Shown here piece by piece: positions 3,155 through 64,000 of a stretch of 64,000 bases of DNA (position 1 is the stretch's first letter; every line of letters begins with the position of its first letter). Both the position numbers and the translations under genes were made by a program. The notes under the pieces are model-generated. The model searched no databases, was not told the origin of the DNA, and worked only from the letters and a program-made list of their open reading frames with translations. This DNA is from Acetobacteraceae bacterium (lineage in GTDB: Bacteria; Pseudomonadota; Alphaproteobacteria; Acetobacterales; Acetobacteraceae), in contig JAIEOP010000050.1 of assembly GCA_019750465.1 (NCBI GenBank), positions 2,529 through 66,528 of the forward strand. The letters are read 5' to 3'.

Positions 3155-6100
3155 ATGCGAAGGCAAAGTCCGTGGCATCTTGGGAGCGTGACAGGCCCCG
3201 TAATCGACAACCCGATTCTCAACAGCCCCTTTGCCGAGCCCTCCCGCCATTGGGAGCTCGACGAGAGCGGCATCCCCACCGGCACCCCGGCCCCCGGCCG
3301 GCGGCGCAGCGAATTCATCGTCCCCGTCCCCCCGCCGAAGCACAAGGTGAAGGCCCAGGCCACCCTCGACCTGGAGGATGAGTACGGGAAGCGCCAGCCG
3401 AACGACTACATCAATGAAATCAGGACGAAAGTTGCCCAATGGCGGTCCCTTGGCGAACAGGGCCTGCGGCCCGTCACGCCCGTCACGGCCCGCCTGCTAC
3501 GCCACTGGCGGGAACAGGGCCGGGCCCGCCCGCTCTTCTTCTGCCAGGTTGAGGCGGTGGAGACCGCCATCTGGCTGACCGAAGTCGCCCCCCGCGCCGA
3601 GACGGAGCGCCTGCGGACCCTCAATTCGGAGGCCAACCCGGACCTCCTGCGCATCGCCTTCAAGCTGGCGACCGGCGCCGGCAAGACCACCGTTATGGGG
3701 ATGCTGATCGCCTGGCAGACCCTCAACGCCGCCCGAACGCGCAACTCGACCCGCTTCACCGACGCCTTCCTGATCGTGGCCCCCGGCCTGACGGTGAGGG
3801 ACCGCCTGCGCGTGCTCCACCCGTCCGACCCGTCCAACATCTACGCCGCCCTCGACATCGTGCCGCGGGAGCTGCGCGACGATCTCCAGCGCGCCCGGAT
3901 CGTCATCACCAACTTCCATGCCTTCAAGAAGCGCGAAACGCTCGAGGCGCCGAAGCTGGCGAAGGAGATCCTGGCTGGCCGCACCGGGAAGGTGGAGCGC
4001 CCCGAAACCGACGGCCAGATGGCGCAGCGCATCTGCAAGGACCTGCTCGGCCGCAAGCGCATCATCGTCATCAATGACGAAGCCCACCACTGCTATCGCC
4101 AGAAGGTCGGCGCAGCGGATGACGCGAGCGCGAAGCTCGACGCTGAAGGCAAGGCGGAGGCCAAGAAGAACAACGCCGCCGCTCGCCTCTGGATCAGCGG
4201 CATCGAGGCTCTGCAACGCGTCGTCGGCCAGCCTGTCCTGGTCTACGACCTCTCCGCCACGCCCTTCTTCCTGCGCGGCTCGGGCTACCCCGAGGGCACG
4301 CTCTTCCCCTGGGTCGTCTCCGATTTCTCCCTGATCGACGCCATCGAATGCGGCATCGTGAAGGTGCCGCGCGTCCCGGTGCAGGACCTGCCAGGCGCCG
4401 ACGAACCGGTCTACCGCCACGTCTATCGCTACATCCAGGAACATTCGGATGTGAAGCTGCCCAAGGTTGGCCGGGCCAAGCAGGGCAAGCCGCTCACGCC
4501 CGACCAGCTTCCCTCCCAGCTCACCGGCGCGCTCCAGGCGCTCTACGGCCACTACCGCCAGGTGTTCGAGAACTGGGCCAGCCGCGGCGGCAGCACGCCG
4601 CCCGTCTTTATCGTGGTCTGCAACAACACCGCCACCTCCAAGCTCGTGCATGACTGGATCGCCGGCTACGAGCGCATCGAGACTGACGCCGAGGGCGCGG
4701 AGCGCCGCGTCATCGTGCCCGGCAACCTGCCGCTCCTCTCCAACGTCACCCAGGCCGGCATCGGCCAGAGCAGTATGGTCGAGCGCCCCGTCACCATCCT
4801 GATCGACAGCGAGGAACTCGAATCCGGCGAGGCCCTGTCGGACAACTTCCGCAAGCTGGCTGGACCCGAGATCGACGCCTTCAAGCGCGAACTCCGCGCC
4901 CGCGGCCGCCATGCGGAGGCCGAGACCGTCACCGACAGCGACCTGCTGCGTGAGGTGATGAACACCGTCGGCCAGCCCGGCCGGCTGGGCGAGCCGATCC
5001 GATGTGTGGTCTCCGTCTCCATGCTGACCGAGGGGTGGGATGCGCGCACGGTCACCCATGTGCTGGGTGTGCGCGCCTTCGGCACGCAATTGCTGTGCGA
5101 GCAGGTGATCGGCCGTGCGCTGCGCCGCGTCTCCTACGACCCGGTCGGCGTGGATGACGCTGGCAACGCCATGTTCGCGCCGGAGTATGCCGAGGTGCTG
5201 GGCATCCCCTTCAGCTTCGTGCCGGCCAATTCCAAGGCCGACTACACCCCGCCGAAGAAGACCACCCAGATTCATGCTGTGCTGCCGGAGCGTGCGGCGC
5301 TGGAAATCCGCTTCCCCCGCGTCATCGGCTATCGCACCGTGCTCCCGCCCGGTCGCATCACCGCTACCTTCACCAATGAAAGCCGCCTTGAGATCGATCC
5401 GACGGATGCGCCGCCCGAAGCCGTCAGCGCTGCCATCATCGGCGCCGAGCACACGCTAACGCTGAACGACCTCCGCCACCAGCGCGACACCACCATCGCC
5501 TTTCACCTGGCGGGCCACACGCTGCGCACCTGGTTCCGCGACAGCGAGGACCACCTGAAGCCATGGCTGTTCCCGCCGCTGCTCACCATCACGCGGCGCT
5601 GGATGGCGCAATGCCTGACCTGCCTGGGTGGCACCTTCCCGGCCTACCTGCTGTGGCGCGACATCGGCGACAAGGCGGCGGAGCGCATCTTCCGCGCCTG
5701 CACGCCCGAGGTCGCTGGCCCCGGCACACTGCGGCCCATCCTGGACCCCTACAACGAGGCCGGCAGCAGCCGCCATATGAGCTTCGCCACCACCAAGACC
5801 AACTTCTGGACCCCCGACGCGCAGAAATGCCAGGTCAACCTGATCGTCTGCGACGAGAATTGGGAGGCCGCGGCGGCGCAGGCGCTGGACGGCATGCCGG
5901 AGGTGCTGCGCTACGTGAAGAACGACCGGCTGGGCTTCGAAGTGCCCTATGTCGACGGCAGCACCGAGCGGCACTACCGGCCCGACTTCATCGTGGTGGT
6001 GGAGGACGGACGCGGCCCGGATGATCCGTTGCACCTCGTGCTGGAGGTGAAGGGCCGCCAGACCGCACAGGACGACGCAAAGCACGACACCATGCGCAAA

Positions 6101-32620: not shown

Positions 32621-33568
32621 TCACCAATGCCAGTGCACCGGTGCCACACCGGCCGCCGGCGCGCGGAAGGTCGCGAGGCTGTCGCCCGCCAGACTTCCGA
32701 GATAGGCCGTGCGGCGGTCGTCGCCGCCGAAGGCGATGCTGCTGAGGTTGCGCAGGATGCGGCTGCGGGCCTCGTGGATCATCGGGCGGGTCAGCCTCCG
32801 GGCGTGCAGCGCCGTCTCCAGCGCGTCCAGGTGCGCGGGGTCGCTGTCCTCGATCACCACCTGGCGGGTGCCGTCGGGCGCGATGCGGGTCAGCCGGTTG
32901 CTGGCGACGCTGACGACCCAGACGGCGCCGGCCTCGTCCAGGGCGAGGCCGTCGGGGTAGTCGCCGTGCCCGAACGTGGCGATCGTCGTGCGGTTCGAGA
33001 GACTGCCGTCTGGCGCCATGTCGAAGCGCGTCAGGCGGCGGCCGAAGGTCTCGTTGACATGCAGGTGGCCGCGCGCCTCGTCGGGCCAGCACTCGTTCGT
33101 CCAGACCAGGTCCGTGGCGACGACACGGACGCCGTGCTCATCCTTCAGCGCGACGAACCCGTCCGCGACGTCGGTGCGGTACTGGTCGTCGCCCTTGCGC
33201 ACGGTGCTCACGCAGATCCAAAGCCGCCCCCGGCTGTCGGTCCGGACGAAGTTGACGCTGCCGAGCCGGCGACCGGCGATCTCCGTCACCTCCGGTTCGA
33301 TGCGGCCGTCCGGATGCAGGCGCCACACGCCGCCATCATCCGACAGGTTCGCGATGGCGAAGCTCCCGTCCCGCAGCAGGGCGATGCCGTTCGGCACCAG
33401 GCTGCTGCCGCCCATCAGCTCCTGCGTGCCATCGGGCGCGATCCGGGTGACGCCGCCGCGTCTGTCCGAGACGTAGAGGTCGCCGCGGCGCGTCGCCAGG
33501 ACGCATTCGGGGCGGTCCAGGTCGTGGCCGACGAAGCCGATCGCGTCGAGGCCGGTCTGCGTGCCCAC
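32621..33568 (-). CDS. SMP-30/gluconolactonase/LRE-family protein (candidate lactonase)
   Basis: 315 aa with repeated beta-propeller-type segments ('PECVLATRRGDLYVSD', 'PNGIALLRDGSFAIAN', 'YPDGLALDEAGAVWV'). Confidence 0.7.
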   Translation of the reverse strand: MGTQTGLDAIGFVGHDLDRPECVLATRRGDLYVSDRRGGVTRIAPDGTQELMGGSSLVPNGIALLRDGSFAIANLSDDGGVWRLHPDGRIEPEVTEIAGRRLGSVNFVRTDSRGRLWICVSTVRKGDDQYRTDVADGFVALKDEHGVRVVATDLVWTNECWPDEARGHLHVNETFGRRLTRFDMAPDGSLSNRTTIATFGHGDYPDGLALDEAGAVWVVSVASNRLTRIAPDGTRQVVIEDSDPAHLDALETALHARRLTRPMIHEARSRILRNLSSIAFGGDDRRTAYLGSLAGDSLATFRAPAAGVAPVHWHW

Positions 33569-33571
33569 CGC

Positions 33572-55471: not shown

Positions 55472-56311
55472 TCAGGTCACGCGGTAGATCGTGAAGGAGC
55501 CGCGGGCGCCCTCGCGGTTGGGTCCGACCTGGCGGATCCGCTCCAGCACCTTCACCTCGATGCCCTGGCGCTTTTTCAGGCCCGCGAAGAAGCCGCGGAC
55601 CGTGTGCTGCTGCCAGCCTGTCGCCTCGCAGATCTGGGCGATGGTGGCGCCCTCCTCGCGGCGGAGCAGGGCGAGCACCTGCTCCTGCTTCGTGCCCTCG
55701 CGCGGCTTGCGCGGCGCGCCCGGCTCCCGCGTCGCGCGCGCCGGCTTCGCCAGCATCTGGCGCAGGGCGTCCATTGCGTCCGTCAGGTCGTAGCGCTGGT
55801 TCGCCTCGTCGTCCCAGGCGTCGAGCACCCGCTGCGCGGTATCGCGTAGGGTGGCGTGCAGCGCGGGCGTGGGCGCGGTCTGGGCCGCTTCCGGCGCCGG
55901 GACGTCCTCACCCTGCGGCGTCGGCTCCTCCGCGCCCGTGCGCGCCGTGTCGGCCACCGTCGCGGCGGTCTCCGCGGCGGCGCGGCGGTCGGCGTTGCGG
56001 CGGGCGATGGCCTCGGCGCTCTGTTCGTCTTCCTCACGCGCGTCGCCCGCGTTCGGGTCGATGCCGATGGCGCGGAGCCCCTCGTCGGTGATGCGCGCCA
56101 CGATCCAGGTCCCGTCCTCGTCCTGGCGCCAGCCGAGCCCGACATGCTCATGCGGCGCGTTGATCTCGGTGAGCAAGTTGTTCTTGATCAGGCTGCGAAA
56201 CACCGCGTTACGGGCCGCGGCGGGCAGGGTCTTCGGCGCACGGGCGAGGCCCATCTCGTGCTGCGCGGCCGCGCTCAGGATCGCGCGCTGGGTGTCGGAA
56301 AGCTTGGTCAT
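55472..56311 (-). CDS. DUF3489-domain protein
   Basis: The C-terminal 'TKQEQVLALLRREEGATIAQICEATGWQQHTVRGFFAGLKKRQGIEV' is the DUF3489 signature as I know it. The middle of the protein is low-complexity and acidic, rich in Ala and Pro. Confidence 0.75.
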   Translation of the reverse strand: MTKLSDTQRAILSAAAQHEMGLARAPKTLPAAARNAVFRSLIKNNLLTEINAPHEHVGLGWRQDEDGTWIVARITDEGLRAIGIDPNAGDAREEDEQSAEAIARRNADRRAAAETAATVADTARTGAEEPTPQGEDVPAPEAAQTAPTPALHATLRDTAQRVLDAWDDEANQRYDLTDAMDALRQMLAKPARATREPGAPRKPREGTKQEQVLALLRREEGATIAQICEATGWQQHTVRGFFAGLKKRQGIEVKVLERIRQVGPNREGARGSFTIYRVT

Positions 56312-56408
56312 TGCAGCAGTCTCCGGTGTCGGGCGCCGACCATCGGCCCCTACTGCCGGGAGCCCCGCCGGCTGTGCCGGTCGGGGCCGCGGCGGGGTGT
56401 GCCGCGCG

Positions 56409-56645
56409 CTACTCCGCGAATTCGCCGCGCTTGAAGTAGGAATCCGTCACGCTCGCGAGCCGGCTGTTCCAGTGTTCGAGCGTCGCGGCGTTGCCCCAGA
56501 GGACGTCCTCGGGATCCGCCTCGAAATGGTCCGCGCTCATCTGCTGCAGTTCGGCGACCATCGCGTCGAAGCGGGCCTTCTGCTTCAGGAAGGCTTCGAG
56601 GCTCTTCTGCTGGTTGCGCGAGGCGCGGGTGTCGAAATCGGTCAT
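56409..56645 (-). CDS. hypothetical protein (78 aa)
   Basis: ATG at 56645 ('MTDFDTRASRNQQKSLEAFLKQKARFDAMVAELQQM'). The composition is helical and the codon GC3 is good. I recognise no motif. Confidence 0.45.
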   Translation of the reverse strand: MTDFDTRASRNQQKSLEAFLKQKARFDAMVAELQQMSADHFEADPEDVLWGNAATLEHWNSRLASVTDSYFKRGEFAE

Positions 56646-56827
56646 TGTCGTGTCCGTCGTGGTGCAGGGCATCCCCTGCGTGTGACGGACCATTCGCGCT
56701 GTGCCGCGCACGAGCCAAGCAAGATGGAGCGTCACGGGATTGCTATTATTCGGCGGTCTGGATCACAAGACGATCGACGACGCCGCGCGCAGCGGCGAGG
56801 CTCAGCGGCATCGTGCATGTTCCGGTA

Positions 56828-56866
56828 GACTTCCCACGGCTGGGAAGTCGATGCGGCCCCCGCATC
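56828..56866 (-). terminator. two tandem GC hairpins at the 3' end of the HTH gene (no U-tract)
   Basis: GACTTCCCA-cggc-TGGGAAGTC (56828-56849) and GATGCGG-ccc-CCGCATC (56850-56866). The second overlaps the stop codon. Confidence 0.3.
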
Positions 56867-57431
56867 ACGCGCGCGCGTCTGGCCCGATCGAAGCATGCGG
56901 ATCCAGCCGATCAGCGACGTCCAGCAGTAGCGCGTTCATCTGCTCCTGCAGGATGGTCTGCACGAGATGCGGATCGCGGCCGATCTCGGCGGCGATCAGC
57001 CCCGACACGCGCGCCGGCCAGTTCAGCACCGCATCGCGCATGCCGGCGGCGCATTCATCGATACGATGGTTGGCGGCGGCGACGTCCATCAGGCGGCCCT
57101 TCGTTTCATCGATCGCCAGGCGTTGCGCCTCGACGCCGAGGGCAAGTCGCGCCAGCGTCAGCCGGCCCAGCGGCGTGTCATCACCTGGCATCGCCAGGGG
57201 CGACCGGCCCGGCACGGCCGATGCGGTCAGATCGCGGCGAACACGCTCAACATCCCAGGACCCATCCGTCTCGCGGCGGATGCGCCCAACCCGCTCGGCC
57301 TTCTGGATCGCGGTGTGGGACACCCCTAGCCGGCGGGCGAGGTCGCGGGCGGAAGTAATGCGTTCTGGCAACGGCACCTCCCGCCACGGGCGGTCGTGGC
57401 AACGTGCTGGCAACTGGTTCGCACCTGGCAA
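56865..57431 (-). CDS. HTH DNA-binding protein, possibly Nu1-type small-terminase-like
   Basis: The N-terminal HTH is 'ITSARDLARRLGVSHTAIQKAERVGRI'. The helical C-terminal half ('EAQRLAIDETKGRLMDVAAANHRIDECAAGMRDAVLNWPARV') resembles the layout of Nu1-like terminase small subunits. A more likely start is TTG at 57371, preceded by GGGAGG. Confidence 0.55.
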   Translation of the reverse strand: MPGANQLPARCHDRPWREVPLPERITSARDLARRLGVSHTAIQKAERVGRIRRETDGSWDVERVRRDLTASAVPGRSPLAMPGDDTPLGRLTLARLALGVEAQRLAIDETKGRLMDVAAANHRIDECAAGMRDAVLNWPARVSGLIAAEIGRDPHLVQTILQEQMNALLLDVADRLDPHASIGPDARA

Positions 57432-57488
57432 CCCATCAGATCCGAATCATCTGACTGGCTTGCCCGACGATCTTGGCAACCTGGCAAC
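57366..57488 (-). repeat. six copies of GTTGCCA (TGGCAAC on the plus strand)
   Basis: Copies at 57366, 57397, 57408, 57426, 57474 and 57482 (7 nt each). They span the 5' end and upstream region of the HTH gene. Confidence 0.7.
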
Positions 57489-57633
57489 CTCGATTTTTAC
57501 CAGACGCTAGCGATGTTGCGCGCTTCCGCCCCCCGCATACGATATCGCCCGGGAGGAACCATGGCCTCGACTTCGAGAGAGGCGCGACCTCTCGACGCGC
57601 CACGAATCTACACGCCGCAGATTCCGCGGCGCA

Positions 57634-57675
57634 ATGCACTCATGCGCAGGATCGCTGCCTTTCGCACGAGTGCAT
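57634..57675 (-). terminator. 13-bp inverted repeat (12/13 match) downstream of the 184-aa gene, no U-tract
   Basis: ATGCACTCATGCG (57634-57646) pairs with CGCACGAGTGCAT (57663-57675). It lies 15 nt past the stop at 57690. Confidence 0.3.
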
Positions 57676-57689
57676 CGCGCCGTTCTTCC

Positions 57690-58244
57690 TCAGGCCGCTA
57701 TGCGAGGCCGCGGCACCAGCCCGTAGTGCGTCGCCAGCACGGCAAGCCCAGCGGTGAACATGCCCTGCGCCTGGGCCGGCGCGATCGGGCGTCCCTGCCA
57801 GCCCTGCGCCATGGCCCACTCCCGGAGCGAGCACTCGAGCCCGAGCACGTGCCACACCGCCGAACCGCCCGGACTTCCTGGCCCGCCCAGCGCCTCAAGA
57901 GCGGCTGCGACCCTATCCCGTGCCGCAACCTGGCGCTCGGTCATTGTGTCGCCGCCGCCCTTCGGCATGCGGAGCAGTTGCGTCGTCCGCATGCCATCAA
58001 GCGCCGCGGATCGAAACTGCGTCCGGAACATGCAGCCGGCCTCGTGCATCTGCGAGGTGATGGTGCCGTTGGTCAGCATGGCGCCGAGCGTGTCGACCGC
58101 GCGGCGATGCTGAACGGGCGTTCCCGTCTCCGGGTCGGTCTCGCGCACTGCCTCGCCAACACCACCGTGCTGCAGACGCCAGGGCGAGGGCTTCGACAGG
58201 TCCTCGCGCTGAGTCGTTCTCGTGCGCTTGCGCTTACCGGCCAT
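57690..58244 (-). CDS. hypothetical protein (184 aa)
   Basis: ATG at 58244 ('MAGKRKRTRTTQRED'). The layout resembles small phage or mobile-element regulatory proteins, but I recognise no firm motif. Confidence 0.5.
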   Translation of the reverse strand: MAGKRKRTRTTQREDLSKPSPWRLQHGGVGEAVRETDPETGTPVQHRRAVDTLGAMLTNGTITSQMHEAGCMFRTQFRSAALDGMRTTQLLRMPKGGGDTMTERQVAARDRVAAALEALGGPGSPGGSAVWHVLGLECSLREWAMAQGWQGRPIAPAQAQGMFTAGLAVLATHYGLVPRPRIAA

Positions 58245-58497
58245 TGCTGGGCCCTCCCTGTCGTCGCCCCCACCGGCGTACCGCCTCGTTGATGACGGCC
58301 TGGCGCAGTACCGCGTCCCCGATCTCATCAAGGACGAGCGTCGCCACGCCCTGCTCGTGCCAAGCACGACGCCGCATCGCATCCAGCTCCGGGCCTGTGG
58401 TGGGGCTCGGTCCGCGATCGAGGCAACCGCGCGGCGGTCTGGGACCGCCGGGCAGCGCCATGCGCGACGCGGAGCTGCAGTCGCGCACCACCATCAC
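58234..58497 (-). CDS. hypothetical small protein (start uncertain)
   Basis: The ORF overlaps the stop and start of its neighbours (4 nt and 11 nt). Only the C-terminal half ('ELDAMRRRAWHEQGVATLVLDEIGDAVLRQAVINEAVRRWG') looks protein-like. Confidence 0.35.
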   Translation of the reverse strand: MMVVRDCSSASRMALPGGPRPPRGCLDRGPSPTTGPELDAMRRRAWHEQGVATLVLDEIGDAVLRQAVINEAVRRWGRRQGGPSNGR

Positions 58498-58994
58498 GAC
58501 GCCATCCTGCGTGCGGCGGCGGCCTTAAGCAGGCTCTCCGGCAAGGCCGGAGCGCCACCCGACGGCCAACGTGACTGCCGCTGCGGCTGCCACGGCCCGG
58601 GCGTGATGCCGAAGTGCTGCAGCACCAGCTCCAGGCGATTGGTCAGTGCGACAGCGGCATGCGCCCGCAGGAAGGGCATGACGTGCTGTGTGCGGAAGGG
58701 CAGCCAGTCCGCCGCCTCCGGGATCCAGACACCTTCGACGATGTCGCCTCCGGTGCAGAACTCAGCGTAGTGCCCGCCTTCGTCACGGATGACCCAGTAG
58801 AAGACCTCTGCGCCGTCGCACAGCGCGCGCTCCATACCTTCGCTGCCGCGGCTAGAGCGCAGGACCTTCGAGAGCGATTCGTGCCAGTCCAGCCCATCGG
58901 CAAGCCCGAGCTGATTGGCGCGGACGTACCAGTCGGGTTCCGGCAGTTCCACGATTTCGCCGTGCCGGTAGGTGGTGAGGGTGTCGGTGCTCAT
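58494..58994 (-). CDS. hypothetical protein (166 aa)
   Basis: ATG at 58994. The composition is balanced ('FYWVIRDEGGHYAEFCTGGDIVEGVWIPEAADWLPF'). No recognised motif. Confidence 0.5.
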   Translation of the reverse strand: MSTDTLTTYRHGEIVELPEPDWYVRANQLGLADGLDWHESLSKVLRSSRGSEGMERALCDGAEVFYWVIRDEGGHYAEFCTGGDIVEGVWIPEAADWLPFRTQHVMPFLRAHAAVALTNRLELVLQHFGITPGPWQPQRQSRWPSGGAPALPESLLKAAAARRMAS

Positions 58995-59092
58995 GATGCG
59001 CGTCCCTGATCGTGTTCTGGAGAAAGCCGGCGGTCACAGCAGCATGGTGGCGCACGGGCGCGATGCGGCACCTCGGGCGCATGCGAGCCAGC

Positions 59093-59404
59093 GGGTCCGG
59101 GTGGGTCCAGGTCTGGGTCCGGGTTGGGTCCGGGTCCGCGGCGCCGAAAAACGGCGGAAATCCGCCATGGGTCCGGGTGGTCCGGGTGGGGCCGGGTTTC
59201 CCCCCTACTCTTCCGTACACCCCGTATGCGCGTGTCATGCGCGATGTGCGTGACATGCGTGATGCACAAACCGGCTGCTACGAAAGAGAACACAACAGAC
59301 CCGGACCACCCGGACCCACCCGGACCCACCAAGGAATTCCGCGGCTTTCCGGCGACTGGCATACCCGGACCCTTACCCGGACCCACCGTCGCAGACCCGG
59401 ACCC
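59093..59404. repeat. iteron field: 7x GGGTCCGGGT-type repeats facing 6x ACCCGGACCC-type repeats around a central region of about 100 bp
   Basis: Left-arm copies start at 59093, 59103 (GGGTCCAGGT), 59115, 59126, 59169, 59179 (9 nt) and 59188 (GGGGCCGGGT). Right-arm copies start at 59299 (9 nt), 59308, 59318, 59363, 59375 and 59395. The centre holds CATGCGCGATG (59236) and CATGCGTGATG (59254). Confidence 0.85.
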
Positions 59405-59421
59405 ACTGGCCATGGCCGCGC

Positions 59422-61833
59422 TCATCGCGATGCCTCCTGGCTCGGCTGCCGGCGATATCGGCGTTCGCGTTTGGCGCCAGTGCCATGGCCGCCCTTGCGT
59501 GCGCGCGTTTGCTTGAAGCCCATGCTGATCAGGCTGCGGACGACGCGATTCTGATCGGCCTGCGTCCAGCGCCCCTTTTCGATGGCGAGCGCGTGCTGCA
59601 GCACCTCGGCCACCGAGACGTCCTGCAATGGCGAGGGCCGCGGGCGTCGGTAGGCGTGGCTCTCGCCGAGCCCGTTCTGCATCCACTCGGTGTCGTTCTC
59701 GAGATAGCTCTCGATCAGATCGTCCCAGGCATCGCCCTGATAGCGCTCGGCCTGCTCCTCCGCGGCCAGGCCATCGAGCGCCTGCGTCTCCAGCCACCAG
59801 GGCTCGTTGCCGCGAAACCGATCCCGTGCCTCGGCCCAGAGCTGATCCCGATCCTGCTCCAGCGCCGGCAAATCAATGCTGCCGCACACCACCGGCCAGA
59901 ACCGCCGACCGCCAGTCGGGTCTTTGAGATACCCGCCCTCCGGATTCACGCTCCCGGCAAAGATGCATTGCCGCGGCAGATCCACCAGCCGCTTGCCATA
60001 GGGCGGCCGAAAGCGATCCTGCGTGCGCGACATGAATGCCTTGATGGTGCTGACCTCGGCACGGCCCATCGTGTCGAGCTCGGCGATCTCGATGATCCAG
60101 ACGCCGCGTGTTTCCATCGCCGCGTCCTTGCTGCTGAGGTCAGAGAGGCGGTCGGCAAACCAGGGCTTGGCGATCGCCATCAGGGCGGAGGATTTCCGGA
60201 TGCCCTGCGGTCCTTCGAGGATCAGCGCACAATCCGCCTTGCAGCCGGGGATGTAGATCCGCGCGACGGCCGACATCATCCAGCGCGGCCCGATGGCGCG
60301 GTGATAGGGCGTGTCCTCCGCGCCGAGGTAGCGCACCAACCAGGCATCGAGGCGCGGCGTGCCGTCCCAGGCCAGTGCGTCCAAGTGGTCGCGCACCGGA
60401 TGAAACAGCCGGTCACGCGCCACGACCTCCACCGCCTGGCCGGCGATGGACATCGGCACCATGATCTCCTGGTGCTGCAGCCAATTCGCCACCAGCGCGT
60501 CATCGCGGTCGGCCCATGGCGTGTCAGCCCAACTGGCTGAACCGCTGATCCAGGGCGGTGGCTTGCGGGCGACCGTCGTGGTGGCGAAGGCATCGTGCCA
60601 GAGGACGCCGTCCCATTCCGGCGCGCCGCGCAGGGCGGTGATAGCGTTCGCCAGCACGGGCCGGGGCTCGCCGTCCTCGTTGAGCAGCAGATCCTTGCGC
60701 CATTCGTTGGAGAAGGCAGCTGCGGGTCGCGTTGCTGCGATCAGCATCCGCACCGCGTCCGCGCCGTCCGATTGCAGGACGTCGTTGAAGTCCATCGCCG
60801 GTGGCGGCTCGGCAACGCTCACGTCGTGCCCACGGGCTCGCAGCACGGTGACAGCCTGGCGAAGCTGCTGGTCGGCCTTGCTGTTCGGCTCGTCGCCGTC
60901 GCGCGCGATGATGACCGGCGCGCCGTCGGGCAGGGGCACACGGGCGATGTTGCTGATGCCGAGGCAGGCCCAGCATTCCTGGCCGGTGGCCTGCCAGACG
61001 GAGAGCGCTGTCTCGACGCCTTCGCAGAGCACCACCGGCGCGATGCCGGGAAAGCGCACGGCGGCGACATCGGCCCAGCCGTCGTGCGCCTTGTTGGTGC
61101 GCTTCTGGACCTTGAGCGGTGCCTTGCGCCCGTCCTCGGTGAGATAGATCAGTTGCAGGCCGTGAACCTGCCCCTCGGCGTCCATCGCCAGCGCGACCAG
61201 CGCGCCATAGTGGTTGAACGCGTTCGGCAAGAAGCGGATGGATGGCGGGAGCGGCGTGGCCGTGATGCCGCGACGGTGCAGGTAGGTCTCGACACGCGTG
61301 CCGGCCGCGTCCTCGCAGCCGGCGACGATCTCGGCGACCTTCGCGGCTCGCTTCGCGTCCTCCGCCGCTTTCTTCGTGGCGGACGATGAGGGGCGGTCCT
61401 GCCATGGTGGTGGTCCGGGCGCGTCGTCCGCGGTGGCGGCTGGCTCCGGCGAGGCCGGGTCGATCGATGGCAGCGTCACGTCGCCAATGTCAGATGGCGA
61501 CACCGGTGGTGGCGGTGATGGCTCAGCCGTCTTACGGCGTGGTCCCGCCGGCATCCCGAGCCATTGGCGGGACCAGTCAAGTGCTGCGCCGTTGGTGAGC
61601 CCGCGCCGATGCCGCAGCAGCTCCAGGCCGGCGCCGCCACTGCCATGCTCGTGGTCGAACCAGCGCCCGGCGTCGTCGCCCTCGAGCTCGACTGCGATGC
61701 TGCCATGCGTGCCGAAGCGCAGCTGCGTCGGCGTGGACAGCTCGCGGTTCGGCTCGCCCAGCAACTCGCGCGCGAGATCGCCGATGCGTGCGTTGAGTGC
61801 CTGCACCACGTCCTTTGCGCTCGCGCCGCTCAT
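59422..61833 (-). CDS. primase-helicase (N-terminal primase-like region, Toprim, VirE/D5-type P-loop NTPase)
   Basis: The Toprim region is 'VVLCEGVETALSVWQATG...VIIARDGDEPNSKADQ'. The VirE-type Walker A is 'LILEGPQGIRKSSA', followed by 'WIIEIAELD' and 'FRPPYGKRLVDLPRQCIFAGSVN'. The likely start is ATG at 61833 ('MSGASAKDVVQAL'). Confidence 0.85.
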   Translation of the reverse strand: MSGASAKDVVQALNARIGDLARELLGEPNRELSTPTQLRFGTHGSIAVELEGDDAGRWFDHEHGSGGAGLELLRHRRGLTNGAALDWSRQWLGMPAGPRRKTAEPSPPPPVSPSDIGDVTLPSIDPASPEPAATADDAPGPPPWQDRPSSSATKKAAEDAKRAAKVAEIVAGCEDAAGTRVETYLHRRGITATPLPPSIRFLPNAFNHYGALVALAMDAEGQVHGLQLIYLTEDGRKAPLKVQKRTNKAHDGWADVAAVRFPGIAPVVLCEGVETALSVWQATGQECWACLGISNIARVPLPDGAPVIIARDGDEPNSKADQQLRQAVTVLRARGHDVSVAEPPPAMDFNDVLQSDGADAVRMLIAATRPAAAFSNEWRKDLLLNEDGEPRPVLANAITALRGAPEWDGVLWHDAFATTTVARKPPPWISGSASWADTPWADRDDALVANWLQHQEIMVPMSIAGQAVEVVARDRLFHPVRDHLDALAWDGTPRLDAWLVRYLGAEDTPYHRAIGPRWMMSAVARIYIPGCKADCALILEGPQGIRKSSALMAIAKPWFADRLSDLSSKDAAMETRGVWIIEIAELDTMGRAEVSTIKAFMSRTQDRFRPPYGKRLVDLPRQCIFAGSVNPEGGYLKDPTGGRRFWPVVCGSIDLPALEQDRDQLWAEARDRFRGNEPWWLETQALDGLAAEEQAERYQGDAWDDLIESYLENDTEWMQNGLGESHAYRRPRPSPLQDVSVAEVLQHALAIEKGRWTQADQNRVVRSLISMGFKQTRARKGGHGTGAKRERRYRRQPSQEASR

Positions 61834-61992
61834 CGGGCGCCTCGAGCGAGTGGTGGGACTGGGTCGAGAATCGGCATCGGGCCTCCGCGGCGAAGACCCG
61901 AAAGAAGCCACACGACATGTGCCTGGTCCGCGTTGGAGCCGGTCCGGCCCCTAGCCGGGCGGAGGGTTCAACCCTTCAGCCGCGCTGCGACG

Positions 61993-62682
61993 CTATCCCC
62001 AACCGCGCTTCGCACCGCCGCGCTGCGAGGCGGGCAGTCGGATCAGCGTCGCCATCGCGTCGGCAAGGTTCTGCGAGACCGGCTCGCCGTCCACCGTCTG
62101 CTCGCGGAACCAGTCAGCCAGCAGCTCCTTCTTGCCTTGGCCGCGCGCGCTGATCCGGTTCTCTGCGATCGCCCGATCCAGGAGGTCCATGTACGGCGTG
62201 CGATACGGCTCCCCCGTTTCCGGATCCGCCGCGGGAGCTGGCTGCAGCGCCTCGACGACCGGCCAGATCGCCAGCACCATGAAGCGCGGCACGCGGATGT
62301 CGATGAACTGGCCGTCGGCCATGGTCAGCACGCCGCCCTGCACATCAGCGCGGCCGGCACGCCAGTGTTCGGGGGTGATGGTACTGTGGTGACCGGAGTG
62401 CAGGTCCCAGCCGTCCAGGGCATGCGTCCATGGGCGGGACTGCGTCGAGGACAGCCGTCCCTGCGCATGCAGATCTCCGTCCCGCAGCGCCACCTGGACC
62501 TCGCGGGCTGCCTGGCTGGGCGCGCCGCCCCGCGGGTTCTCGGTTTGCCGCCAAGGCGGGAGGGCGGGATCCGGCTGCGACGCGATGTCGCCGCGGGCGA
62601 CAGCCCGTTCGATCTGGGTTGCAACATGATCAATGGCTTGGCTGAGGCGCCACTGCGCCCGATCCAACTTTTCGATCAGCAT
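61993..62682 (-). CDS. hypothetical protein (229 aa)
   Basis: ORF track 61993..62682. The composition is protein-like in the C-terminal half ('PYRTPYMDLLDRAIAENRISARGQGKKELLADWFREQ'). No recognised motif. Confidence 0.45.
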   Translation of the reverse strand: MLIEKLDRAQWRLSQAIDHVATQIERAVARGDIASQPDPALPPWRQTENPRGGAPSQAAREVQVALRDGDLHAQGRLSSTQSRPWTHALDGWDLHSGHHSTITPEHWRAGRADVQGGVLTMADGQFIDIRVPRFMVLAIWPVVEALQPAPAADPETGEPYRTPYMDLLDRAIAENRISARGQGKKELLADWFREQTVDGEPVSQNLADAMATLIRLPASQRGGAKRGWG

Positions 62683-62792
62683 TCCAGCCCTCCGTCGCCT
62701 CGCAGAGGCAGGAACATATACCGAACATCAGCGGGGTTGAAGGGTTCACCCCCTCGCTCGCCGGCTGGCCAGACCGGCTCGCAGGTGGCGAC

Positions 62793-63050
62793 ATGGCGCC
62801 TTCGTGGGCTCGAGTGCCGCCCATGCCAGCCACCGCCGCCGCCCCAGGCCGTCCCCCGCCGAACCACCTCCCACCGCACCTCCGCGAGGTCTGCGCCATC
62901 CTGGCCGCCGGCCTGGTGCGGCTGCGCAGCCGGGTTGCCGAGGATGAAGCGCGCGATGCCGAGCTAGCTCGGGGGGCGGGAGAGGTTCGCCTACACTCCA
63001 CCGCCCACCAGCGCCTGCATGCGAACCCCAACAGGAAGGGACTCGCATGA
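62793..63050 (+). CDS. small conserved ORF, paralogue of 682..894
   Basis: 'LPPHLREVCAILAAGLVRLRSR...RLHANPNRKGLA' aligns with the copy at 682..894. ATGA overlap with the DUF2924 start. The true start is uncertain. Confidence 0.4.
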   Translation: MAPSWARVPPMPATAAAPGRPPPNHLPPHLREVCAILAAGLVRLRSRVAEDEARDAELARGAGEVRLHSTAHQRLHANPNRKGLA

Positions 63051-63544
63051 CCAGACGATCCACCGCCGCGCCCGCGCCGGCACCAACCATCCCGAAGATC
63101 CCGCCCACTCAGGTGCTGCCGCGGCTCGCCGCGCTGCAGACCGCGCCCACCGCCGACCTGAAGGAGCAATGGCGGGAGCTGTTCGGTAAGGAGCCTCCGC
63201 CCTGGAACCGCGCCTACATCCAGAGCCGACTGGCGTACCGGATCCAGGAACTCGCCTATGGCGGGCTGAAGCCCGAGACCGTCGATCGGCTGGTGGCGCT
63301 GGGCGAGCAGTTGGACGGCGGCAACGTGGTGCTGCGTCGCATCCGCGCCGATAGCCGGCCGCTCGCCGGCACGCGACTGATCCGGGAATGGCAGGGCGTG
63401 CAGCACGTGGTCACGGTGCGGGTCAATGACTTCGAATTCGAGGGGCGGCCCTACCAGTCCCTGTCCGCCATCGCTCGCCACATCACCGGCACCCGCTGGA
63501 ATGGCTGGACGTTCTTCGGACTGCGCGCGCGAGGTGACGCATGA
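63047..63544 (+). CDS. DUF2924-family protein (second copy)
   Basis: 165 aa. The C-terminal 124 aa are identical to the copy at 891..1388, despite about 35 silent nucleotide differences by hand count. Confidence 0.85.
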   Translation: MTRRSTAAPAPAPTIPKIPPTQVLPRLAALQTAPTADLKEQWRELFGKEPPPWNRAYIQSRLAYRIQELAYGGLKPETVDRLVALGEQLDGGNVVLRRIRADSRPLAGTRLIREWQGVQHVVTVRVNDFEFEGRPYQSLSAIARHITGTRWNGWTFFGLRARGDA

Positions 63545-64000
63545 CCCGCCGCGCTCGCATCGAGCCGGCCATGCCGGCGACCACGAAGAAGCTCCGCTGC
63601 GCCGTCTACACGCGGAAGTCGACGGATGAGGGGCTGGAGAAGGAATTCAACACCCTCGACGCGCAGCGCGATGCTTGTGAGGCGTATATTACGAGCCAGC
63701 GCGCCGAGGGATGGATGCTGGTGCGCGACCGCTACGACGATGGCGGCTTCTCGGGCGGCACGCTGGAGCGGCCGGCGCTGCAACGCCTGCTGCGCGACAT
63801 CCAGGCCGACCTGATTGACGTGATTGTGGTCTACAAGATCGACAGGCTCAGCCGCTCGCTGATGGATTTCGCCAAGCTGGTGGAGACGTTCGAGGCGCAC
63901 CGGGTGACTTTCGTCTCGGTGACGCAGAGCTTCAATACCACGACCAGCATGGGGCGGCTGACGCTGAACATCCTGCTGAGCTTCGCGCAGTTCGAGCGAG
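63541..64000 (+). CDS. large serine recombinase (second copy), 5' part only, continues beyond the window
   Basis: My own translation from ATG 63541 gives 'MTRRARIEPAMPATTKKLRCAVYTRKSTDEGLEKEF...VIVVYKIDRLSRSLMDFAKLVETFEAHRVTFVSVTQ'. It is nearly identical to 1385..2737, with a few substitutions. Confidence 0.85.
   Translation, partial: MTRRARIEPAMPATTKKLRCAVYTRKSTDEGLEKEFNTLDAQRDACEAYITSQRAEGWMLVRDRYDDGGFSGGTLERPALQRLLRDIQADLIDVIVVYKIDRLSRSLMDFAKLVETFEAHRVTFVSVTQSFNTTTSMGRLTLNILLSFAQFER

Follow-up and report, generated by a model that had tools for sequence, protein, structure and literature searches.

Introduction

The replication origins of Staphylococcus aureus pathogenicity islands (SaPIs) and phage-inducible chromosomal islands (PICIs) lie immediately downstream of rep and contain 6-12 iterons, half of which are found on each side of an AT-rich centre (PMC9371898). 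At least two iterons are present per side, the two sides running in opposite directions, and they are read by a winged helix in the C-terminal domain of Rep (PMC9371898, PMC6092414). In the case of EcCICFT073, autonomous replication conferred by rep and ori was shown by cloning and plasmid-maintenance assays (PMC6092414). Here we describe an iteron field in a 64,000-nucleotide stretch of DNA, below called the window, from an Acetobacteraceae bacterium (assembly GCA_019750465.1, contig JAIEOP010000050.1, positions 2,529 to 66,528). The field fills the gap downstream of a gene encoding a fused primase-helicase, Pri-Rep, and we consider it quite likely, judging from its sequence and conservation, to be the vegetative replication origin of an integrative, satellite-like element of approximately 9.6 kb, served in cis by Pri-Rep. 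The features of the SaPI/PICI origin type that can be judged from sequence are present, the C-terminal winged helix being a candidate one, and this origin is a further example of that known Rep-origin design, in an element that is only PICI-like.

As in SaPIs and PICIs, the candidate origin is located immediately 3′ of rep and has two opposed iteron sets around a less stable centre, and its neighbouring gene encodes a self-loading superfamily 3 (SF3) helicase of the VapE type that is homologous to SaPI1 Rep1 and carries a primase fusion, as does SaPI5 PriRep5. The element also resembles a PICI in being an integrative island of about 10 kb with a recombinase, Pri-Rep, ori and a TerS homologue, and without capsid genes. 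The preliminary description of this DNA did not recognise the two-arm inverted geometry, which is actually a published hallmark of SaPI/PICI origins (PMC9371898), and the novelty of the field is therefore lower than was assumed there. Differently from the penta- to octanucleotides of SaPIs and PICIs, the iteron found here is a GC-rich word of 9-10 bp (GGGTCCGGGT), present in 14 copies that are grouped into inner and outer clusters split by A-tract spacers. Its centre has 47% GC in a 69% GC genome and includes an alternating purine-pyrimidine tract, the primase is of the DUF7146-Toprim type, the host is an alphaproteobacterium of the Acetobacterales, and the same replicon is also found in complete prophages. 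Moreover, a large serine recombinase and DUF2924 are present instead of a tyrosine integrase beside Stl/Rpr or an AlpA regulator, and because this fails the canonical integrase/regulator arrangement, we call the element only PICI-like.

Phage satellite P4 offers a second point of comparison. Its alpha protein combines a primase, a D5-type SF3 helicase and a C-terminal origin-binding winged helix, type I iterons are found in both ori and crr, and these two cis regions, approximately 4.5 kb apart, are both required. The window shares with P4 the presence of primase, SF3 helicase and (predicted) C-terminal DNA-binding domain in one polypeptide of a satellite-type element, and the D5/P4-type proteins that adjoin the same GGTCCGGGT field in other contigs (L069 and others; locus labels are ours) belong to the architectural class of the alpha protein. 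However, the helicase in the window is of the VapE and not the D5/DUF5906 type, the iteron word differs, and no second, crr-like iteron cluster was found in the 64-kb window, which has one compact dyad field. Because helicase type differs and a second cis region is absent, P4 is an analogue of the system described here and not a member of its family.

SV40 large T antigen and papillomavirus E1 are likewise SF3 helicases, the SV40 origin containing four pentanucleotides. They resemble the present system in the use of short inverted words beside an easily melted segment and of two SF3 hexamers with their own origin-binding domain; nevertheless, this domain differs in fold and position, the sites are far fewer, no primase is fused, and the relationship is through the SF3 ATPase core only. 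In iteron plasmids (pPS10, R6K, F and RK2, with RepA, pi and TrfA), the iterons are 17-22 bp long, mostly direct and placed on one side of the unwinding element, and host DnaA, DnaB and DnaC are brought in by the winged-helix Rep proteins that bind there as dimers or monomers. Repeated initiator-binding words, an unwinding element and an adjacent rep gene are common to these plasmids, to the RSF1010 oriV and to our locus, whereas the latter, in which no DnaA box was noted, has an initiator that is at once helicase and primase.

The Iteron Field at the 3′ End of the Primase-Helicase Gene

The gap of 427 bp (58995-59421) is bounded by two minus-strand open reading frames (ORFs) of 166 and 829 amino acids (Table 1). 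Allowing at most one mismatch, the iteron word GGTCCGGGT occurs 14 times within 311 bp, 11 of the copies being exact. Eight copies are on the plus strand (59094-59197), five of them exact and two, at 59104 and 59110, degenerate and overlapping each other; all six copies on the minus strand (59299-59403) are exact. Only three exact copies are scattered over the remaining ~63.7 kb of the window, approximately the number expected by chance. The whole window holds 40 copies (at most one mismatch) compared with 23.5 +/- 4.6 in shuffled sequences, none of 100 shuffles reaching 40, and since the density outside the gap is about 0.4 per kb, 14 copies in 311 bp is far above chance.

Each arm consists of an inner triplet with 9-10 bp spacing and an outer cluster, separated by a spacer of 34-36 bp, and the first iteron lies 18 bp from the Rep stop codon. 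The 20-nt repeat I2 of the proximal inner cluster is 100% complementary to 59168-59187. The local GC content is lowest in the core between the arms, at 0.55 in 60-bp windows and 0.47 at 59259-59298. This 40-mer is the least stable of the gap (nearest-neighbour dG -56.8; mean of the window, -66.2 +/- 3.8) and ranks among the least stable of the whole window, where just 0.8% of 40-mers have lower stability; it is the probable unwinding element of the core. The rest of the core is an alternating purine-pyrimidine tract with CATGCG(C/T)GATG direct repeats at 59236 and 59254.

The preliminary description, made from the sequence only, agrees well with these results. The coordinates of the gap and its filling with repeats were confirmed, as were six reverse-complement copies in the right arm, a core of about 100 bp (101 bp by our count) as the least GC-rich part, and the two CATGCG(C/T)GATG repeats. 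The left arm, given there as seven copies, is present and has eight when the two degenerate, overlapping copies are counted as well. The A-tract mini-hairpins GCCG-AAAAA-CGGC and GGCGG-AAAT-CCGCC are indeed found, at 59143-59166, but they do not hold as conserved hairpins, for relatives keep only a pair of short phased A/T tracts around CCGCGG, which are mirror images of each other in the two spacers.

The Primase-Helicase Pri-Rep

The label of primase-helicase given earlier to the 829-residue protein is borne out by its domains, DUF7146 (6.3e-16), Toprim_3 (9.7e-15) and VapE-like (PF05272, 1.3e-77) in Pfam, and by its PHROG annotation as DNA helicase / DNA primase. Residues 396-738 match SaPI1 Rep1 (PDB 7PDS) with an E-value of 1.8e-48, the PDB entry being a complex of Rep1 with DNA (PMC9371898). 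A helix / helix / basic beta-hairpin segment is conserved over the last ~70 residues, and the AlphaFold model of residues 700-829 has the same helix-helix-beta-hairpin topology at a predicted local distance difference test score (pLDDT) of 78.6, which hints at a winged-helix-like domain. A lookup of the exact primase protein returned no record, probably because of a differently called start.

Two further observations concern this protein family. Residues 32-121 of Pri-Rep match positions 1554-1643, a C-terminal stretch, of the NCBIfam TraI relaxase/helicase model with an E-value of 9e-23, a match far below the family cut-off, and this segment is probably a small shared domain that precedes Toprim primases. 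In addition, the gene calls of the homologues P0112 (L026, 4740-4800) and P0096 (L027, ~4400-4570) run through the proximal iteron arm, so that their C-termini ('GNGGNG' and 'GPSGPS') are translated iterons; annotated 3′ ends are thus unreliable in the Rep family.

Conservation of the Field in Related Loci

Among related genome loci that reach past the Rep stop, 11 of 11 have the identical word in the identical two-arm order. In their alignment the iteron columns are invariant, whereas variation is seen at the ends of the ORFs, in the leader of the downstream gene and in part of the core. The locus L010, with a Rep 65% identical, keeps all iterons around a different core that is 20 bp shorter; L006 and L018 each lack one 10-nt iteron in a single arm, and L004 lacks 12 nt, likewise in one arm. 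The CATGCG(C/T)GATG direct repeat is lineage-specific. Five ORFs called mechanically cross the gap, and a coding explanation for the repeats was considered and rejected, for the indels of the relatives are of 10, 12 and 20 nt and it is iteron columns, not codon positions, that are conserved. Thus no ORF explains the field, and the conserved translated ORF that had been held out as an objection to an origin is excluded.

The field is not confined to the immediate relatives. In the prophages L024 and L025 (Rep 67% and 60% identical), a tyrosine integrase gene is followed by Rep, the field, Nu1-like TerS, GpA TerL, portal and capsid genes, and the field has equal geometry and the word of the window or a one-base variant of it. 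In L026 (Rep 46% identical), iterons GGCAACGGT / ACCGTTGCC are followed by a ParB_N gene. Distant homologues have a different word of 8-10 bp in the same position and geometry: GTGGTCCCAGT in L029, GTGTTCCAGT in L028 (Bryobacterales, in which a DnaG-type primase is fused to the VapE helicase), and GTGACGCA in L015-L020, which reads (G/A)TGACGCA in L015-L017 and L020. In every locus of this differing-word set the densest 8-mer repeat cluster is at the Rep stop, and the cores of distant relatives retain a CACGCGCG-type tract and an A/T-rich run.

Homologues from metagenomes, of which 531 were reported, extend this picture. At least five exact copies of one 8-mer were found near the Rep stop (-80 to +450) in 33 of 65 evaluable homologues of 34-92% identity, and in 0 of 65 control windows taken inside the gene, with the copies usually arranged as one run and then a second run of opposite orientation. 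Altogether, more than 40 related loci have iterons 3′ of the Rep stop, often 0-30 bp away or overlapping it. The field is thus present at the Rep stop of the homologous elements scanned for the word and its two-arm geometry, and the reservation that homologues might have no repeats at this place is excluded. BLAST searches with the 328-bp field gave no match among GenBank phages and PLSDB plasmids, to which the low-complexity filter may have contributed; the segment 58400-62000 gave only weak gene-internal matches. Searching the literature for the iteron word yielded nothing beyond unrelated GPGPG-linker and primer matches.

These comparisons bear on whether the field acts as protein-binding sites or via its structure. 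As a long imperfect palindrome it could form a cruciform, an ssi-type primase-loading signal, or an RNA hairpin in the primase 3′ untranslated region or the leader of the next gene. Indeed, 328 nt of single strand fold as one hairpin (dG -114.8, z -11.2) in which the two spacers pair together, and RNAalifold on 11 relatives predicts 111 pairs, with double-sided changes at 11, among them some in spacers and core. The arms, spacers included, evolve in concert, both changing whenever the word changes between lineages; this is, however, equally expected if one protein reads both arms. Nearly all pairs are invariant iteron bases and the covariation term is unfavourable (+4.5), no Rfam match was found (cmscan of 58400-60000, E <= 1), and a word in tandem at 9-11 bp spacing is unneeded for a hairpin and expected for cooperative protein binding. 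The indels of L006, L018 and L004 described above are asymmetric, the inner clusters are offset by one unit, and the outer clusters have 5 versus 3 copies. Given these asymmetric indels, the unequal and offset clusters and the one-turn tandem spacing, two mirror-image protein assemblies fit better than a hairpin, and an action through structure is improbable.

A protein-bound field could also serve as operator or promoter of the downstream operon (p166, p86, DUF6456, TerS-like), bound by Rep or another regulator and without origin function. Iteron arrays of plasmids often double as autoregulatory operators, and this gap is the sole sizeable intergenic one in a co-directional gene string, ~100 bp upstream of the p166 start. 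Elsewhere, however, the field precedes unrelated genes, namely TerS in L024 and L025, ParB_N in L026, and a 124-aa ORF and tail protein Z in L094, while it tracks the C-terminal half of the upstream gene. In many relatives, no space separates the first iterons from the Rep stop, which they overlap or adjoin, and no sigma-70-like promoter was found by a scan that is weak for this taxon. The two 'terminator-like' matches of a terminator scan are iteron pairs only. We therefore give a purely regulatory role little weight.

Two-sided repeats are also known from partition sites, R1 parC and P1 parS having iterons on both sides of a core. Such a centromere would agree with the geometry and with the ParB_N gene 3′ of the field in L026; on the other hand, the field is tied to Rep, and no ParA, ParM or ParB homologue is found in the element of the window or in most relatives, making this reading very unlikely. 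Long terminal inverted arms built of repeated short words could finally be those of an inserted miniature inverted-repeat transposable element (MITE) or of joined transposon ends with multiple transposase-binding repeats. Yet the field is single-copy in 64 kb, shows no evident target-site duplication, and occupies one and the same place with respect to the Rep stop in over 40 loci from several orders, with no empty site seen, and a mobile-element origin of the field is extremely improbable.

The Iteron Word and the C-Terminal Half of Rep

Comparison of prophage L025 with L015, L016 and L020 separates the candidate partners of the iteron word. Their TerS proteins are 82-90%, their TerL proteins 93%, and the primase halves of their Rep proteins 56% identical. 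In contrast, the helicase and C-terminal half of Rep is VapE-type in L025 versus D5/DUF5906-type in the other three, and the iterons are GGGTCCGGGT versus GTGACGCA. As the terminases are near-identical while the helicase/C-terminal half and the iterons differ, we conclude that the word goes with this half of Rep and with neither the terminase nor the primase domain. In the terminal hairpin, 26 of the 26 GGTCCGG-type VapE proteins compared carry Q-x-R-A/P-R ... RERRYRR, while the proteins of CCCAG and TTCCAG type have RE/QWRYR in place of RERRYRR.

The same prophages bear on the reading of the field as a packaging site (pac or cosB-like) bound by the small terminase. P1 pac has hexamer clusters on both sides of its cut region, the element encodes a TerS-like protein, and in the prophages L024, L025, L015-L017 and L122 the field is found between the replication gene and TerS/TerL. 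Nevertheless, the iterons differ between prophages whose TerS and TerL are 82-93% identical, in keeping with their different Rep C-terminal halves; no terminase is nearby in L026, L028, L029 and L094; and a distinct conserved block of ~70 nt is present directly upstream of TerS in phages and satellites alike. The separate cos-like block, together with prophages that agree in terminase and differ in iterons, removes the pac/cos explanation, which we regard as highly improbable.

The earlier proposal of a candidate replication origin beside the primase-helicase gene is thus supported both by the conserved place and geometry of the field and by a word that co-varies with the helicase/C-terminal half of Rep.

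The Same Iteron Beside D5-Type Primase-Helicases

In IMG/VR, 118 loci with GGTCCGGGTGGTCCGGGT were retrieved; approximately 30 of them have two-arm clusters, 13 of these adjoining VapE-type Rep genes. Many of the 118 matches have just 2-3 copies on one strand, and these are probably coding Gly-Pro-Gly repeats and not origins. At least eight two-arm fields (L046, L059, L069, L077, L082, L094, L116 and L122) are located directly 3′ of a different primase-helicase, whose architecture comprises Zn_ribbon_DnaG, Toprim, D5_N, DUF5906, Pox_D5 and an RFX-like winged helix. The core of the field in these D5-type contigs, which have 49-60% GC, shows a clear CACATGCGCGCGCG tract and an A/T-rich run; in L094, the field is followed by the 124-aa ORF and tail protein Z mentioned above.

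Objections and Proposed Mechanism

Several results count against an origin that is read by the C-terminal domain of Pri-Rep. The core is AT-rich in relative terms only, with 47% GC at its minimum in a genome of 69% GC, and the field can be folded as one 328-nt imperfect hairpin (z -11.2) in which double changes occur at a few pairs of the spacers and core. A Foldseek search with the C-terminal model gave 7PDS chains at the top (E 0.06-0.5), followed by mixed winged-helix proteins, with no match at E <= 1e-3; because no match is significant, we label the domain only winged-helix-like. The prediction of iteron sharing from identity, which is slightly better for C-terminal than for helicase-core identity (area under the curve 0.96 and 0.94, respectively, or 0.92 and 0.875 at matched divergence), is confounded by phylogeny. 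One protein, P0096 of L027, is an exception to the wing rule, having a W-type wing and GGTCCGGGT iterons. Finally, the C-terminal profiles of VapE-type and D5-type proteins show no significant similarity (hhalign E 0.045 over 21 columns), and an iteron shared by proteins with dissimilar C-terminal domains is awkward for a simple model in which this domain reads the iteron. The sole stretch that aligns is the wing, where both types carry Q-x-R-A/P-R ... R-E. Neither the VapE-type proteins whose fields use other words nor the D5-type proteins of L015-L020 have this motif. The word shared by the two families could be due to convergence, to transfer of a recognition motif or to origin capture.

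The origin that we favour would function as follows. After excision of the element, the C-terminal winged-helix-like domain of Pri-Rep would recognise the 9-10-bp word (G)GGTCCGGGT. Each arm, with its inner triplet at one-helical-turn spacing and its outer cluster past the ~35-bp A-tract spacer, would nucleate one SF3 hexamer, and the two helicases would assemble face to face across the 101-bp core. The core would then melt at 59259-59298 and in the adjoining alternating purine-pyrimidine tract, the Toprim domain of Pri-Rep would prime, and the host replisome would copy the circle bidirectionally. Binding by the C-terminal domain, loading of a double hexamer, the site of melting and autonomous replication are the inferred steps of this scheme.

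Table 1. Coordinates in the window of the candidate origin, its initiator gene and the surrounding element.
Feature	Position	Strand	Description
Pri-Rep	59422..61911	-	Fused primase-helicase, 829 aa: DUF7146 + Toprim_3 primase, VapE-type SF3 helicase, C-terminal winged-helix-like domain (~760-829)
Rep-proximal outer iteron cluster	59363..59403	-	Three exact ACCCGGACC (= GGTCCGGGT on - strand) at 59363, 59375, 59395
Proximal spacer	59327..59362	.	A/T tract-CCGCGG-A/T tract (GGAATTCCGCGGCTTTCC); mirror image of distal spacer
Rep-proximal inner iteron cluster	59299..59326	-	Three exact copies at 59299, 59308, 59318; spacings 9 and 10 bp
Core	59198..59298	.	101 bp between arms
Distal inner iteron cluster	59170..59197	+	GGTCCGGGT, GGTCCGGGT, GGGCCGGGT at 59170, 59179, 59189
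Distal spacer	59136..59169	.	Contains GCCG-AAAAA-CGGC and GGCGG-AAAT-CCGCC
Distal outer iteron cluster	59094..59135	+	Five copies at 59094, 59104, 59110, 59116, 59127; second and third degenerate, overlapping
p166	58494..58994	-	166-aa gene; bounds gap, outside origin
Host element	55472..64000, past window end	.	~9.6 kb judged from L002; integrative
Plus-strand genes of element	63538 onward (recombinase, cut by window end)	+	Large serine recombinase (PF00239); DUF2924
Minus-strand genes of element		-	Order: p229, Pri-Rep, ori, p166, p86, DUF6456, cos-like block, TerS-like, p108, DUF3489
Cos-like block	57531..57558	-	TTCCTCCCGGGCGATATCGTATGCGGGG; in gap 57432-57689, upstream of TerS-like gene
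TerS-like gene	56865..57431	-	188 aa, phrog_57

The Host Element and Its Putative Packaging Region

The element adjoins chromosomal metabolic genes (FMO, thiolase-like and enoyl-CoA hydratase). No capsid, portal or TerL gene is present within it, and no AlpA / Stl homologue was detected in it. The same element was found in genomes or metagenome-assembled genomes (MAGs) of Roseomonas alba, Falsiroseomonas, Roseococcus and Elioraea, and in the 7.5-kb IMG/VR contig L073. The element is likely to be a phage satellite. Prophages with GpA terminase of the L024/L025 type use the same Rep/ori type, and the element is a candidate satellite of these.

In the case of p166, no match was found in Pfam, PHROG or NCBIfam, and a lookup of the protein returned only contigs shorter than 2 kb. 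It is confined to satellite-type loci and is unrelated to the prophage TerS that comes after the same field. We considered p166 as iteron binder or as TerS and rejected both roles, given that it is unrelated to phage TerS and absent from prophages with the same field.

Residues 100-186 of the TerS-like protein are 34-40% identical to the prophage Nu1-like TerS, while the N-terminal helix-turn-helix part differs; this would be the pattern expected of a satellite TerS that keeps its contact with TerL and changes its DNA specificity. The conserved block of ~70 nt (GGTTCCT..GGGC..AT..GTATG.GGGG...GCGC...CGC) found in prophages L015-L017, L024 and L025 is located just upstream of TerS. Its counterpart in the window has two mismatches to the 28-nt pattern, for which the number of matches expected by chance is 0, and lies 1.5 kb from the iteron field; it is conserved in other satellites. 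In satellites, the cos-like block is followed by GTTGCCAG repeats, five of seven copies in the window being found within 57365-57488. These five, of the form GTTGCCA(G/A) on the minus strand, occupy the interval from the cos-like block to the TerS-like coding region and cover the mechanically called TTG start at 57431, the true TerS start being probably downstream of the listed one. The GTTGCCA(G/A) repeats may be cosB-like binding sites of TerS. As judged from their arrangement, block and repeats look like a cos-type site with satellite-specific TerS sites, which suggests that the satellite mimics the packaging site of its helper.

Elsewhere in the window, ARAGORN reports a 93-nt tRNA-Arg(gcg) at 32733-32825 (+), within a strongly coding ORF (32621-33571, minus strand, GC content at third codon positions 0.93); it is probably a false positive.

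Implications for Acetobacterales Elements and Their Phages

No new replication principle is implied by these results. They would provide a concrete candidate origin (59094-59403) and its cognate initiator for the ~10-kb Acetobacterales elements of Roseomonas, Falsiroseomonas, Roseococcus and Elioraea, which are currently without one. The design of rep followed by two opposed iteron sets is widespread beside VapE- and D5-type primase-helicases in Alphaproteobacteria, Acidobacteria-like contigs and many viral contigs, and is found in complete prophages and satellites alike. The graded iteron words and the matching changes in the wing could be used to approach a DNA-recognition code and the compatibility of helper and satellite replicons.

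We also raise, tentatively and with considerable doubt, the proposal that one origin cassette serves both VapE- and P4/D5-type SF3 primase-helicases, in prophages as well as in a satellite that mimics TerS and cos. This cassette would be defined by the GGTCCGGGT word and the order of outer cluster, spacer, inner cluster and purine-pyrimidine/AT core, followed by the mirror image. If true, it would point to a compact, transferable recognition code in the wing of the winged helix, or to origin capture between replicons, and it would predict that their common origin leads to cross-firing, or to interference in replication, between helper phage and satellite.

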